DNA of 4,813 nt. Origin: a virus (Duplodnaviria; Heunggongvirae; Uroviricota; Caudoviricetes). Positions 768 through 4,813 of the stretch are shown here, piece by piece. Location of the stretch: IMG/VR virus record IMGVR_UViG_2563366830_000013; one strand, 5' to 3'. The position numbers and the translations under genes were made by a program. Each line of letters starts with the position of its first letter. Position 1 is the stretch's first letter. The notes below the pieces were generated by a model that did not search any database, was not told the origin of the DNA, and saw only the letters and a list, made by a program, of their open reading frames with translations.

Positions 768-794
768 CCCGCAATATTTTGCGGGCTTTTTTTT
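768..794 (+). terminator. Rho-independent terminator-like hairpin (7-bp GC-rich stem CCCGCAA/TTGCGGG, 4-nt loop, then C + T8) immediately 3' of the tailspike stop codon
   Basis: Perfect inverted repeat 768-774/779-785 followed by TTTTTTTT at 787-794. The T-tract is on the plus strand, so it is canonical for plus-strand transcripts; on the minus strand (tailspike mRNA) the hairpin follows an A-tract and has no U-tract, so it may act bidirectionally or mainly stop convergent transcription. Confidence 0.6.
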
Positions 795-3700
795 AACGTT
801 CTTCCAGAGACTGAACCCGCTCTTTTATCTTATCCATTTCTCTGCGCTGCCATGCTGCCTCGATATAGAATAAGAGATCAGGTCTGACCCCCCATCTAGA
901 TCCTGCTGGCGTTATTTCAACGCGCTCAATGATGTCTTCTATTACCATCACTGGATTATCATCATCATCAACAATGATGCTCCCGTCATTATCAGTCAGC
1001 GGCATTTCCCTTTGGCCAGTAATGACGTCATCATATACTGCGGGATAATCGTCATAGCAAAGAAAGGCATAGCGGCATGTTGTGCTTTCTTCTTCCATGA
1101 GTCCGTGAGAAATAAGAACATCACGAAGTTGCTGCGCGATTACACCATGATGTATCCTCGCCCCTTCTTCCCCCTTTATAGCGACAGCGTTCAGCCATTT
1201 ATAAGCGATATACCTGACGTCACCCCAGGCATCCAGCAATGCTTCGTCAGGAGAGACCGGCTCTGTCTTTAATGTTCCGTCACTGGTAACCACAGGATTG
1301 GAGCCAAGATAAACTGTCGAGAACCTGTTTCCCGGACCACCAAGAGCATTTACATTATCAAGATAAGGTTTAACATCTCCGTTCTCAAAAAGATGTTCGA
1401 GTGCGTTATATACCGCGCGACGTGGAGTACTGCTTCCGGAACCATGCAACGTTATCATTGCACCATCTGCTGAAGACGTTGTTTCACCGCCGCTAACGAT
1501 TAATCTCTGAGCGGTAACATCATCAGACGGTACTTTCTTCGCAATAATGGCGTAATTACCCTCAAGTTTGACTTCCGCGCGAACTTGTCCTGATGTACCT
1601 GCATGGACAGTCAGTGACTGGACGGCAACATCATCTGTGAAATCAACGGGTACAGGAACCGTCCTCACGCCTGACGTCGACATAAAAGTAGGAAGCGTTC
1701 TGTTAGGAGTGGCTCCGTAGACAAAATCCCTTGAAACAAATTCTTCCTGTTTAATTTTCACCCTGAAACAATACAAATCAGCCGGGTGACCATCGTGAAC
1801 ATAAGGATATTTTCTGTTGTTATCCCCTATGCTCCATGGGTTTAGAAAGTCTTCCCCACCGAAAATGTAGTACAGCCAGTTGTCTTTGATACAAACTGAA
1901 CCAACACCAACCGCAGAGTTAACTATTCCGCCCTGATAAATCTGATCAGTAACATTAACCCACTCTACATTATCCAGACTCCACTCATTGACGTTAACTC
2001 TGGTCATAAATGTTCTTGGATAATTTCCTGCATAACGGTTATCAGGTTCTCCTCCTTCCCACTCACCAAATGCGCGCTCACTGCCAAAAATAATCAGCTC
2101 ATCGCCAACTTTGGCAAAAGGAAGGTTTGAGTGATGAACATTATTTGGGAAGCGAAGAGAATTCCATGATGTACCTAAATCAGAGCTTCTGTGCAATGAA
2201 CTACCGGGTTGAGTACTTAATGTCCCCCTGGTCGTCAGATACAGAATGCCATCATAATATTTTACACATGGCTCAGATGCATTCGCCTCATATTCTACAG
2301 GTATGCGTCTGCGAACAAAGCTACCAGGAGAACCGAAAGCATCAGAGAAATAGAGTATCCCAAGCTCGCGTGGACCAATATCACCATTATGGTAGCCAAC
2401 AGCAAAACTGTTATCGCTAATCGTCGCAAAACTGTGAATCTCAGTAACAGGAGTGCTTCCGTCAACAAAAGAAGGAATAGTTCCAAGACTGGTTTTTCTC
2501 CATGGTGACGAGTGAAATGATGTGCCAAAACTCCAGTATCTACCCTCGTTATTCTGATCCACATCCTGGGTATTTTGCGTCGTAACTGTAAAGGTATTTT
2601 TATCAATAACAGTAGTCACCGTCATATTCCCGGTAACACCTGTAACACCAGAGTTTGAGAAGTTGACAAAATCACCAGCAAATAATCCGTGATCAGTAAT
2701 GCGAATATAAGCGACTTGCTGATTTGCTGCTTTCGTTATACCACCATAAACGCGAAGGCTGCGACTCATTGGGCGATCCCACAACTCTGCAACCTGCAGT
2801 TTATTTCCTCTCACGGTCCGCGTCTCAATTACAGCAAAAAGGCGATTTCTGACAACCCCCATACTCATGCAGTGATAGTTAACTGTGGGATAGTTTTCAT
2901 GTAAATCTGTAAGCCATTCCGGCGTTGTCCAGGTCTTCCCGTCATCTCCTGAGCGAACCCATGCAACATGGAGGTTATTTACACCATGGCGGTCTCCAGC
3001 CATAAAAGGCGCATAGATGACATTGTCATATACAAACGTTTTATCCTGCGTCCAGGCGTTGTACCACGGTGTATCTGTAATTTTAAATAACTCTCCCTGG
3101 ATAAAATCTTCAGAAGCATAAAAAAGAGGCTGGCCCGGTATTCTCTCAAATAAAAAACGAGCATTTTTAAATCGACTGACATCCGGAAGAGTTGATACTT
3201 TAAAAGTAAGCCCTAATCCGTCAATTTTATAACCTGGAGATGAGGCTTCAAGGCACGCGCTTATTGCAGTGGAATCGTCATTTATACCATCACCAACAGC
3301 TCCAAAATCTTTGGGGCTAATAGCATCACGCATTTTATCCTGGAACGTTCGGTACACAGCCCCAGAACCATACTGAATAAACCAACCAAAACCACCAACA
3401 ACTCCGGCGATTGCAGCATCGACATAATTACGCATTGAGCGATTATTTACAGCGTCCTGCTCAAATGATGGATCTGCAAGGTTAGAAATTTTGTTTTGCT
3501 TTGCATCGTAATATTTTGCAAGCAAAGATGGTTTCATCAATGCACGTCTGAACCACCCAAAACATTGCTGGATCAGCATCGTCAGGTAGTCAAAGGCATC
3601 TTCATGCACTTCGGGGAAAAATTTTCCCTGATTGCGAAGGTCTGTGTCCTGCACTACATCAAGCACACGATCTATCGTAATTCGCCATCCAGTAGCAAGC

Positions 3701-3912
3701 GGAGACGGAAGAACCACAGAACCGCCACTATAAGTGCCCGCCCCAGTTACCGTATAACCGGTATCCAGGACCAATTCTGTTACGTTCCCGTTCAGGTCAG
3801 ACACCTGAACAACCAGGTCTGATTTTCTGAAAATTCGAAAAGTATACGGAAACGATGTCGTAACGCCGTTACCGGTGTATTCGTTGTGGTCAACTTCGGT
3901 TGAGACCGTCAT
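793..3912 (-). CDS. Phage tailspike/tail-fibre protein, 1039 aa: T7 gp17-like N-terminal adaptor domain, central endosialidase-like glycanase region with two Asp-boxes, C-terminal intramolecular chaperone (peptidase S74-like) domain
   Basis: Long uninterrupted ORF with SD (minus-strand CTGGAGATTTAAC-ATG). The N-terminal ~150 aa follow the T7 gp17 N-terminal pattern (YTGNGVTTSFPYTF…DYTV…DLRNQG…). Residues 202-215 DFGAVGDGINDDST. Two Asp-box motifs: SGDDGKTW (aa 321-328, nt 2929-2952) and SSDLGTSW (aa 576-583, nt 2164-2187). C-terminal ~160 aa carry a Ser877…Lys882 spacing (TSDGTLK) and …DAWGDVRYI…IHHGVIAQQLRDV…, consistent with a self-cleaving C-terminal chaperone domain. The overall pattern resembles K1F-type endo-N-acetylneuraminidase as I remember it; substrate specificity is not proven. 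Confidence 0.9.
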   Translation of the reverse strand: MTVSTEVDHNEYTGNGVTTSFPYTFRIFRKSDLVVQVSDLNGNVTELVLDTGYTVTGAGTYSGGSVVLPSPLATGWRITIDRVLDVVQDTDLRNQGKFFPEVHEDAFDYLTMLIQQCFGWFRRALMKPSLLAKYYDAKQNKISNLADPSFEQDAVNNRSMRNYVDAAIAGVVGGFGWFIQYGSGAVYRTFQDKMRDAISPKDFGAVGDGINDDSTAISACLEASSPGYKIDGLGLTFKVSTLPDVSRFKNARFLFERIPGQPLFYASEDFIQGELFKITDTPWYNAWTQDKTFVYDNVIYAPFMAGDRHGVNNLHVAWVRSGDDGKTWTTPEWLTDLHENYPTVNYHCMSMGVVRNRLFAVIETRTVRGNKLQVAELWDRPMSRSLRVYGGITKAANQQVAYIRITDHGLFAGDFVNFSNSGVTGVTGNMTVTTVIDKNTFTVTTQNTQDVDQNNEGRYWSFGTSFHSSPWRKTSLGTIPSFVDGSTPVTEIHSFATISDNSFAVGYHNGDIGPRELGILYFSDAFGSPGSFVRRRIPVEYEANASEPCVKYYDGILYLTTRGTLSTQPGSSLHRSSDLGTSWNSLRFPNNVHHSNLPFAKVGDELIIFGSERAFGEWEGGEPDNRYAGNYPRTFMTRVNVNEWSLDNVEWVNVTDQIYQGGIVNSAVGVGSVCIKDNWLYYIFGGEDFLNPWSIGDNNRKYPYVHDGHPADLYCFRVKIKQEEFVSRDFVYGATPNRTLPTFMSTSGVRTVPVPVDFTDDVAVQSLTVHAGTSGQVRAEVKLEGNYAIIAKKVPSDDVTAQRLIVSGGETTSSADGAMITLHGSGSSTPRRAVYNALEHLFENGDVKPYLDNVNALGGPGNRFSTVYLGSNPVVTSDGTLKTEPVSPDEALLDAWGDVRYIAYKWLNAVAIKGEEGARIHHGVIAQQLRDVLISHGLMEEESTTCRYAFLCYDDYPAVYDDVITGQREMPLTDNDGSIIVDDDDNPVMVIEDIIERVEITPAGSRWGVRPDLLFYIEAAWQRREMDKIKERVQSLEER

Positions 3913-4015: not shown

Positions 4016-4032
4016 ATTACCTTTCGGGTAAT
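4016..4032. promoter_or_regulatory. Palindromic candidate operator ATTACC-N5-GGTAAT in the divergent intergenic region
   Basis: Perfect 6-bp inverted repeat with 5-bp spacer. A near-identical palindrome ATTTACC-TTTGC-GGTAAAT recurs at 4395-4413, and isolated ATTACC half-sites lie at 3966-3971 and 4374-4379. The binding protein is unknown. Confidence 0.35.
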
Positions 4033-4068: not shown

Positions 4069-4088
4069 TACTGTATAAACATACAGTT
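4069..4088. promoter_or_regulatory. LexA (SOS) box, near-consensus
   Basis: TACTGTATAAACATACAGTT matches CTGT-N8-ACAG and 17/20 positions of the E. coli consensus TACTGTATATATATACAGTA. It ends 19 nt upstream of the ATG at 4108 and would overlap any promoter for that ORF; it is also about 157 bp upstream of the divergently oriented tailspike start. Confidence 0.75.
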
Positions 4089-4107: not shown

Positions 4108-4365
4108 ATGCAGCAGTATCACTATCCACTGGAAGACGGATTTACCGAAAGGATTCACACGCCGGGAGGCGTCAGGTCACTGGTGGAGGGATCGCACTTG
4201 ATGAAATTACTCCGGGATCTCGATAAGGATGGATTTAATGTCGATGGCCCACTTGCCGAACTGACTGCACTGATTAACTACGTCACCAGCTCACAGATGT
4301 CTATGCAGGATCTGCAAACACATCTCGACTATTGTGCCGAACAATTACGAAAACAAACCAGATAA
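4108..4365 (+). CDS. Hypothetical small protein (85 aa), putatively SOS/LexA-regulated; function unknown (candidate antirepressor or regulatory factor)
   Basis: ATG at 4108 preceded by GGAGA (4096-4100) at 7-nt spacing; stop TAA at 4363-4365. The ORF track's upstream in-frame ATG at 3985 has no SD and would make the LexA box coding, so 4108 is preferred. No transmembrane segment; no family recognised from the sequence MQQYHYPLEDGFTERIHTPGGVRSLVEGSHLMKLLRDLDKDGFNVDGPLAELTALINYVTSSQMSMQDLQTHLDYCAEQLRKQTR. Confidence 0.65.
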   Translation: MQQYHYPLEDGFTERIHTPGGVRSLVEGSHLMKLLRDLDKDGFNVDGPLAELTALINYVTSSQMSMQDLQTHLDYCAEQLRKQTR

Positions 4366-4504
4366 GGTTTGCAATTACCAAATGGAGTGCTTATATTTAC
4401 CTTTGCGGTAAATTTACATCGCACTCCTCTTGTGCCATAGTAATCGGGCACTGGCAAAATCCAGTGCCGGGATTGGTCTCCCGGATTACTACAGAGGCAC
4501 ATAT

Positions 4505-4524
4505 GCCGCATAAGCGGTTTTTTT
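4505..4524 (+). terminator. Putative Rho-independent terminator (short GC stem GCCGC/GCGG with 4-nt loop, followed by T7)
   Basis: GCCGCATAAGCGG followed by TTTTTTT at 4518-4524 on the plus strand, about 140 nt downstream of the 4108-4365 ORF and after a cluster of stable hairpins. The stem is short (4-5 bp), so it may be weak or conditional. Confidence 0.5.
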
Positions 4525-4678
4525 ATGTGTAAAGCGCACCTATTCTATGGTGGGCTGTGTGGGGGCACCGAAAGGTGCGCCGGGTTCCTTTGTAGCCGGT
4601 AAGACCAACTCTGCACAGTTCACCACCATCTGATTGGTCTCAGCGGTGGTGATTAACCTAACTACAAAGGTGATCGCT

Positions 4679-4813
4679 ATGAATACCAAACCTTCCATCT
4701 TTTCCTTTGAGTCATCCTGCCAGATCCGTATGTTCATGATTGACGGAGAACCTTGGTTTGTCACCAAAGATGTGTGCAATGCTTTGAATATTGATGTTAC
4801 ACAAGCGAGAAAA
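4679..4813 (+). CDS. Bro-N domain protein (phage antirepressor-like), N-terminal 45 codons; 3'-partial, continues beyond the window
   Basis: ATG at 4679 with SD AAAGG (4666-4670) 8 nt upstream; translation MNTKPSIFSFESSCQIRMFMIDGEPWFVTKDVCNALNIDVTQARK shows the Bro-N signature (F.F……IR…IDGEPWFV.KDVC.AL). Not in the ORF track because no stop is reached within the window. Confidence 0.8.
   Translation, partial: MNTKPSIFSFESSCQIRMFMIDGEPWFVTKDVCNALNIDVTQARK

Follow-up and report, generated by a model that had tools for sequence, protein, structure and literature searches.

A window of 4,813 nucleotides (nt) of prophage DNA, IMG/VR virus record IMGVR_UViG_2563366830_000013, very probably contains at positions 4397–4681 a c4-type RNA immunity module, like that of the immI operon of phage P1, which gates the translation of a Bro-N antirepressor. 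This assignment is directly supported by the family membership of two small RNAs, C4 and an IsrK-like RNA, by their structures, by four complementarities between C4 and target sequences together with the co-variation of these, and by the overlap of one target with the Shine-Dalgarno (SD) sequence of the antirepressor gene. The window corresponds, with 100% identity, to the minus strand of the chromosome of E. coli MS 196-1 at 1407283–1412095 (NZ_CP146681.1), and the prophage that holds it is about 36 kb long, with guaA and yfgI on either side. The nearest phages are phiV10, ZX5, TL-2011b, and Tyrion, of the epsilon15-like genus Uetakevirus, and the origin of the window is an epsilon15/phiV10-like K1 prophage of E. 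coli. The IsrK-C4 module is flanked by an 85-amino-acid (aa) open reading frame (ORF; 4108–4365) and the gene for a 230-aa Bro-N protein. The DNA stretches compared are labeled by L-numbers (L003, L005, L013, L018, L019, L055, L111, and L140), L140 containing the prophage.

The C4 antisense RNA gene is located at 4543–4630 on the plus strand. It matches the Rfam family RF01695 over the full length of the model (positions 1–87), with a score of 78.6 bits (gathering score 45) and E = 8e-15. A closing stem (4548–4564/4609–4625) is followed inward by hairpin 1 (4565–4569/4574–4578) and hairpin 2 (4579–4583/4596–4600), and the minimum-energy fold, at −43.6 kcal/mol with a z-score of −4.3, is the same as the Rfam structure. 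Across 62 distinct sequences, 98.3% of the cells of this structure were paired (slid controls, 36–49%), and 11 of the 27 pairs showed compensatory changes. The mature RNA is predicted to span about 4547–4626, by analogy with the 77-nt C4 of P1; the conserved ends, AUGGUGGG at the 5' side and CACCACC at the 3' side, align with the annotated ends of P1 C4, which is an analogy of sequence alone. An earlier note on this DNA had described the region in front of the Bro-N gene as highly structured, and 4448–4700 does fold far better than shuffled sequences, at −100.5 kcal/mol with a z-score of −5.25. In the minimum-energy fold of the precursor, the partner of GCGCACCT (4534–4541) is the 5' strand of the C4 closing stem, and not AGGTGCGC (4573–4580). 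The Rfam scan gave only chance-level matches to riboswitches, leaders, and other families.

Upstream of C4 is an IsrK-like small RNA (sRNA), at 4448–4524 on the plus strand, which matches RF01394 over the full model (1–77) with 74.7 bits (gathering score 50). Its minimum-energy fold has the three hairpins of the Rfam structure, with a z-score of −2.8 against shuffles: hairpin 1 (4448–4454/4461–4467), hairpin 2 (4468–4472/4479–4483), and, after a linker, an intrinsic terminator. The two proximal hairpins account for two stems, GGCACTGG/CCAGTGCC and CCGGGA/TCCCGG, which had been proposed to compete; they are instead adjacent, and both are present in the minimum-energy fold. Compensatory changes were found at 12 of 17 pairs among 83 sequences, including 7 of 7 in hairpin 1 and 3 of 5 in hairpin 2. 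Thus, the folding, covariance, and Rfam checks suggested for this region gave compensatory changes in the helices of both RNAs, and both families scored above their gathering scores. The T7 terminator recognized earlier was also found by the terminator scan, at 4505–4524 on the plus strand, as GCCGC-ATAA-GCGGT (4505–4518) followed by T7. It is part of the Rfam isrK model, and the homologous site in phiV10 is annotated as a rho-independent terminator. No competing antiterminator structure is predicted within IsrK; in the minimum-energy fold the linker is unpaired and the terminator is formed. A match to the c4-a1b1 family at 4435–4487 scored 39.9 bits, below its gathering score of 46.7. The IsrK-like sRNA of the window is the counterpart of the a1/b1 element of P1 and of seqA of P4.

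C4 presents two short sequences, b' (CCTTTGTAG, 4587–4595) in the loop of hairpin 2 and a' (AGACCAA, 4602–4608) in an internal single-stranded stretch, and each of these has two complementary targets on the same strand. The a1 target (TTGGTCT, 4473–4479), in the loop of IsrK hairpin 2, is a perfect complement of a', and b1 (CTACAGAGG, 4489–4497), in the single-stranded linker, forms 9 bp with b', including one G-U pair; the end of b1 is 7 nt from the terminator stem. On the other side, a2 (TTGGTCT, 4634–4640) begins 4 nt past C4, in the loop of a hairpin (CACCACC, 4621–4627/GGTGGTG, 4645–4651), and forms 7 bp with a', and b2 (CTACAAAGG, 4662–4670), in the leader of the Bro-N gene, is a perfect 9-bp complement of b'. 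The b2 element overlaps the SD sequence AAGGTGA (4667–4673) of the Bro-N ATG (4679). The hairpin that presents a2 is found in the precursor fold and rivals the C4 closing stem for the 3' strand of that stem. In the minimum-energy fold of the read-through RNA, a1 and b1 are paired in cis with a' and b'. The cognate duplexes have energies of −9 to −14 kcal/mol, compared with −4 to −8 kcal/mol for duplexes with the other module of this prophage, described below.

The repeated 10-nt motif that had drawn attention to this leader, GATTGGTCTC, contains the a1 and a2 targets, and its inverted copy AGACCAA is a' of C4. The motif occurs exactly twice (4471–4480 and 4632–4641), compared with 0.01 copies expected, and none of 200 shuffles reached two copies. 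The b'/b1/b2 triplet, which the earlier note lacked, has three matches compared with 0.03 expected. The 11/13 inverted repeat between 4596–4608 and 4634–4646 is real. All of the motifs listed in that note exist, 11 of 16 exactly where it had placed them, while the rest were 1–4 nt off; the corrected positions are 4384–4390 for GGAGTGC (not 4388–4394), 4461–4468 for CCAGTGCC, 4534–4541 for GCGCACCT, 4471–4480 for the first GATTGGTCTC, and 4602–4608 for AGACCAA.

The complementarities are maintained across related modules. A scan of IMG/VR with the conserved 5' pattern of C4 gave 120 DNA stretches, and these together with phage loci made up 120 distinct candidates, 108 of which could be parsed as C4 modules. 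The loop sequences exist in 17 variants of a' and 32 of b', in many combinations. Nevertheless, a helix of at least 6 bp with the module's own target is formed by a1 in 106 of the 108 modules, by a2 in 98, by b1 in 107, and by b2 in 106. All four sites are matched at this threshold in 94 of 108 modules, but in none of 540 combinations in which a' and b' were swapped between modules. Among the 100 modules for which a start codon was found, 65 have exactly 8 nt between that codon and the end of b2. Furthermore, an isrK followed after 20–25 nt by C4, upstream of an antirepressor-type gene, is present in 17 of 17 non-P1 phage loci compared, among them phiV10, Tyrion, a Klebsiella phage, APSE-1, a Yersinia phage, VT2-Sakai and other Stx phages, SfV, and a Salmonella phage; P1 itself gives Rfam matches to c4-a1b1 and C4. 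A search for complements recovers the annotated a1, b1, a2, and b2 of P1, and finds four equivalents in the window and in every other locus.

What drives transcription of the module? The promoter scan predicts a sigma-70 promoter for an IsrK-C4-ant transcript at 4413–4441 on the plus strand, with TTTACA (4413–4418) as −35, TG at 4433–4434, and CATAGT (4436–4441) as −10. The predicted start, at about 4448, falls on the first position of the Rfam isrK model. In an alignment with phiV10, Tyrion, and ZX5, TGTGCCATAGTAATC is unchanged across these close relatives, and the TG-extended −10 (4433–4441) is correctly spaced and invariant; the start site itself is a prediction. The P51b promoter of P1 has an equivalent placement relative to the first (a1b1) hairpin of P1. 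Promoter-like matches in the stretch number 4, compared with 2.1 expected by chance. This predicted promoter, located upstream of IsrK, would account for the earlier remark that none is obvious for the antirepressor gene itself.

A palindrome, TTACC-N5-GGTAA (4397–4411; extended form ATTTACC..GGTAAAT, 4395–4413), abuts the −35 of this promoter. In the same alignment its arms are conserved and its spacer is variable, and the prophage has 16 copies (13 perfect), compared with 0.75 expected (L140 10769–40080). Of these 16, 14 are outside genes, and two lie between a helix-turn-helix repressor-like gene and a divergent cro-like gene. Because the arms are conserved, the spacer varies, and the copies are numerous, the behavior of the palindrome suggests a protein-binding site. 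It is probably a dispersed operator for the prophage repressor, to which the repressor would bind by analogy with Oc4 of P1. Among all loci compared, only those of the phiV10-like subset have the palindrome, at about 40 nt before isrK. The window has copies at 4017–4031 and 4397–4411, and most copies adjoin promoter-like hexamers. These results change the reading of the stems that had been drawn upstream of 4448, which are DNA signals, promoter and palindrome, and not RNA. The inner hairpin (4395–4413) is the palindrome just described. An outer stem TGTGCC/GGCACA would need bases 5' of the predicted start, from the TG-extended −10, and another, GGAGTGC/GCACTCC, is not complementary in Tyrion and lacks its left arm in the second module.

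The proposed mechanism is as follows. Transcription would start at about 4448 from the promoter at 4413–4441, and most transcripts would end at the terminator at 4505–4524, giving a 77-nt IsrK-like RNA with a1 in a loop and b1 in the linker. A read-through transcript would carry the C4 gene, and we infer that an RNA of about 80 nt is cut out of it; in P1, the excision cut that releases C4 is made by RNase P. C4 would then pair with the downstream leader as in the annotation of P1, a' (4602–4608) with a2 (4634–4640) and b' (4587–4595) with b2 (4662–4670), and since b2 overlaps the SD sequence, this would block ribosome binding, so that the antirepressor is not made. IsrK holds both target sequences, and so could pair with a' and b' and counteract C4, either in cis, within the precursor, or in trans, as a target mimic; this is the most economical reading of its role. 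The balance of IsrK and C4 would then decide whether the antirepressor is translated.

Several points weigh against this proposal. The antirepressor function of the Bro-N protein is assigned from homology only. The transcript start and the mature RNA ends of this prophage are predictions, made by analogy. In Gifsy-1, co-expression of STnc1160 with IsrK left the toxicity of IsrK unrelieved, which simple titration does not predict (PMC4825925). The icd-type leader ORF of P1 is absent here, so that the P1 route, a block of icd translation with polarity on ant, is not literally applicable. Finally, the hairpin that presents a2 is 94% paired among the 62 sequences but shows almost no covariation; it is plausible, being compatible with the sequences, but the covariation is too weak to call it.

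The c4-icd-ant (immI) operon of P1/P7 was reportedly described by Citron and Schuster in 1990 and 1992. The annotation of the P1 record, NC_005856, gives the order operator Oc4, promoters P51a and P51b, a1, b1, the 77-nt c4 RNA, a2, b2, icd, and ant. The window has this layout element for element: operator and promoter, a1, b1, a hairpin with a T-run, C4, a2 right after C4, and b2 on the SD sequence of the next gene. Together with the full-length Rfam matches and the co-variation in 108 modules, this bears out the earlier suggestion of P1/P7 c4-type control. The C4 fold is also the same, with b' in the loop of hairpin 2 and a' in an internal single strand, and as in P1/P7 heteroimmunity, specificity is carried by a' and b'. 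However, the window has no icd ORF, and b2 covers the SD sequence of the antirepressor itself, which is a Bro-N protein rather than Ant1/2. In addition, the window has a full IsrK with a strong T7 terminator, whereas P1 matches only c4-a1b1, and P1 is a plasmid prophage, whereas the phage of the window is an integrated epsilon15-like podovirus. In P1 (L018 18284–18318), a hairpin and then TATTTTTG lie between b1 and c4, at the position of the IsrK terminator, although with no isrK score, and the scan does not call a terminator there; it is possible that P1 produces a weaker IsrK-like RNA.

The isrK-orf45(STnc1160)-anrP region of Gifsy-1 in Salmonella is similarly arranged, with a promoter-proximal 77-nt IsrK that has a leaky terminator, then an approximately 80-nt C4-like RNA (STnc1160, processed from the 'orf45', or C4, region; PMC4825925), and an antirepressor gene at the 3' side. 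When IsrK was provided in trans, translation of anrP in Gifsy-1 increased about 140-fold (Hershko-Shalev et al. 2016, PMC4825925), and both the association with Hfq and the trans-activation of the downstream antirepressor by IsrK have been demonstrated only there. By their positions in the sequence, the compensatory mutants of that study, G28/G31 of IsrK and C162/C159 of 'orf45', map to a1 and a', and 'structure A' of Gifsy-1, with IsrK on a'/b' in cis, is like the minimum-energy fold of the window read-through RNA. However, the Gifsy-1 ORF through C4 ends on the anrP start (AUGA), with coupling shown, whereas that of the window ends 45 nt upstream; also, b2 of the window is directly on the antirepressor SD sequence, and the specificity sequences differ. 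The APSE phages of Hamiltonella, also podoviruses, have isrK and c4 adjoining a Bro-N/Ant gene (Rouil et al. 2020, PMC7313666), and APSE-1 (L005) has all four complementary sites. Their a' and b' sequences differ from those of the window, and the upstream target was assigned in that report to the end of a DNA polymerase gene, not to IsrK. A catalog from 2010 already includes the motifs c4 and c4-a1b1 (PMC2864571), and in a review from 2025, IsrK and c4 are still treated as two separate systems (PMC12197685).

How, then, might IsrK act on C4? It is possible, and we put this forward tentatively, that target mimicry is the dedicated role of IsrK, which would titrate C4 as an 'anti-antisense' RNA, so that mimic, antisense RNA, and mRNA form a three-RNA switch set by read-through. 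A related system allows a different view. In phage P4, the CI RNA acts by premature transcription termination of the replication operon. Like C4, CI is a processed small RNA between two complementary target regions, seqA and seqC; the downstream target in the window overlaps an SD sequence, and the regulated gene is an antirepressor, which sets the two systems apart by description rather than by a sequence-level comparison. The Rfam C4 and isrK models are reported to detect relatives of P4 CI and seqA (2023, PMC10111431). By this account, C4 on nascent a1/b1 would enforce termination at 4505–4524, and possibly further downstream via a2/b2, so that control is mainly transcriptional and IsrK is a by-product. 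The location of a1/b1 just upstream of the terminator, with b1 ending 7 nt before the stem, is in its favor, as is the recognized kinship of P4 CI, seqA, and seqC with C4 and IsrK (PMC10111431). It would likewise explain why a1/b1 are kept complementary to C4, and Hershko-Shalev et al. raise the possibility for STnc1160 (PMC4825925). However, the IsrK linker is predicted to be unpaired and the terminator formed, with no antiterminator to compete, and the near-constant spacing of b2 to the SD sequence points to translational control. Moreover, Gifsy-1 IsrK in trans raises translation 140-fold, but transcription only 8-fold (PMC4825925). We therefore regard attenuation of the P4 type as unlikely to be the main mode of control.

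The published model for Gifsy-1, in which IsrK opens the ribosome site of the ORF through C4 ('orf45') on the read-through mRNA and translation is coupled to that of the antirepressor, was shown genetically in Salmonella (PMC4825925). The window does have a conserved ATG (4547), which opens a 28-codon ORF (4547–4633) through C4. Its stop codon is 45 nt before the Bro-N ATG, which makes coupling implausible, and over the 108 modules the ORF has anywhere between 3 and 416 codons, with just 5 cases in which it adjoins the downstream start. It is the nucleotides that are conserved and not the peptide, as the Gifsy-1 authors remarked (PMC4825925), and the model is improbable for this prophage. A small protein encoded across C4 (Ash/orf45) was rejected on the same ORF lengths and count of abutting genes. 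No ORF separates C4 from the Bro-N ATG, and among the modules only a subset has icd-like ORFs. Even less probable is a purely cis-acting conditional terminator/antiterminator or riboswitch-like leader, acting with no trans-acting RNA. The 3' strand of the C4 closing stem can indeed pair either with its 5' partner or with GGTGGTG (4645–4651), in mutually exclusive structures. However, no riboswitch family gave a match, both target pairs co-vary with loops of an RNA that is stable and folds separately, and the related RNAs are excised and trans-acting (P1 annotation; STnc1160, PMC4825925); the proposal of such a conditional terminator is thus not supported.

The comparison with P22 that had been offered for this leader fares no better. 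The sar RNA of P22 is cis-encoded on the opposite strand, and like C4 it is a small RNA that represses translation of an antirepressor, whereas the RNAs of the window are on the same strand as their target and would act through short loop contacts. On the minus strand, a single weak promoter-like match (4764–4736, 9/12) could serve an antisense RNA across the antirepressor start, but the stretch has 4 promoter-like matches in all, and 2.1 are expected by chance. The minus strand has no terminator and no significant Rfam match, and all conserved structure is on the plus strand, so that we give a sar-like RNA hardly any credence. The c4-type module on the plus strand is the reading that we retain.

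The gene that C4 would control begins within the window, which holds its 5' end (4679–4813, plus strand; the full 230-aa gene, by the RefSeq annotation, is at L019 7679–8371). The protein matches the Pfam Bro-N domain (1.8e-13) and PHROG 130, 'anti-repressor Ant' (3.5e-51). In phage ZX5, a coding sequence annotated as an 'ash family protein' (L003 3163–3276) covers most of the C4 RNA gene; since other modules do not conserve this frame, the call is probably spurious.

The prophage has a second isrK-C4 module (L140 34800–35095), about 4.5 kb from that of the window, with isrK at 34851–34927 (68 bits) and C4 at 34952–35037 (76.7 bits). Its operator/promoter region is near-identical, but a' (ACGCCAA) and b' (CCTACTAG) differ. 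Its b2 is on the SD sequence of a 168-aa gene, which is followed by an ORF6N-domain gene, and RefSeq lists this C4 as a frameshifted 'Rha family' pseudogene. Since its cognate duplexes (−10 to −13 kcal/mol) are stronger than the cross-module ones (−4 to −8 kcal/mol), the two modules look orthogonal. Tandem isrK-C4 modules, with differing a'/b' combinations, also occur two or three to a viral contig (L055 9685–11220, with a spacing of 656 bp; L111 4691–5458). In a Stx2a phage, a match to sRNA-Xcc1 (RF02221, 75.7 bits, L013 1443–1526) lies about 560 nt downstream of the C4 module, which recalls a co-occurrence reported for some APSE phages.

The 85-aa ORF upstream of the module (4108–4365) is a stand-alone paralogue of the C-terminal domain of the Bro-N antirepressor (aa 149–222), with 42% identity over 74 aa (E 6e-16), and both match PHROG 450 and PHROG 15539. 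A LexA-box-like palindrome, TACTGTATAAACATACAGTT (CTGT-N8-ACAG, 4069–4088), lies 20 nt upstream of its ATG (4108), with arms that are invariant and a spacer that is variable in the alignment of phiV10, Tyrion, and ZX5. The product could act as a mini-antirepressor induced by the SOS response, or it could compete with the full-length protein. No terminator intervenes before that of IsrK, so the mRNA of this ORF may extend to 4524 and include a1/b1. Two extensions of the mimic proposal would follow from these neighbors. The prophage would have two orthogonal copies of the switch, with near-identical promoters and the same operator, each gating a different antirepressor-type gene. Also, an SOS transcript from the LexA-box promoter of the small ORF, ending at the IsrK terminator, would provide an extra a1/b1 mimic as its 3' untranslated region.

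The other genes of the window belong to the phage and to an insertion element. The tailspike gene (793–3912, minus strand) encodes a 1039-aa endosialidase (Pfam End_beta_propel, 1.7e-232) with a Peptidase_S74 chaperone domain and an epsilon15-type N-terminal adaptor, and is the K1-capsule-specific receptor-binding protein of a temperate Uetakevirus-like prophage. The holin gene of the phage (169–486) is split by the 3' end of an IS3-family element (1–255; transposase C-terminus, 8–244), and RefSeq lists it as two fragments. Another prophage gene is broken by a second IS3 copy (L140 30997–32210). Because the IS3 copies interrupt the holin gene and another gene, the prophage may be defective. 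A search of the window found no transfer RNA or transfer-messenger RNA genes.

The module is a further copy, so far unannotated, of an RNA switch already known from phages, and does not reveal a new mechanism. In the records that we examined, its RNAs are not annotated: phiV10 marks only the terminator, and ZX5 has the 'ash family protein' over C4. If IsrK is indeed a mimic, the published Gifsy-1 model of an sRNA acting on its own mRNA would be recast as sponging of C4, and if an SOS transcript ends at the IsrK terminator, DNA damage would be coupled to release of the antirepressor. Its recognition identifies the control element of prophage induction for a family of E. coli prophages that are specific for the K1 capsule. 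The comparison of modules also gives a rule, that the antirepressor leader and the IsrK recognized by a given C4 can be predicted from its two short loop sequences, and this rule could help to map heteroimmunity and cross-talk between prophages that reside in one host.

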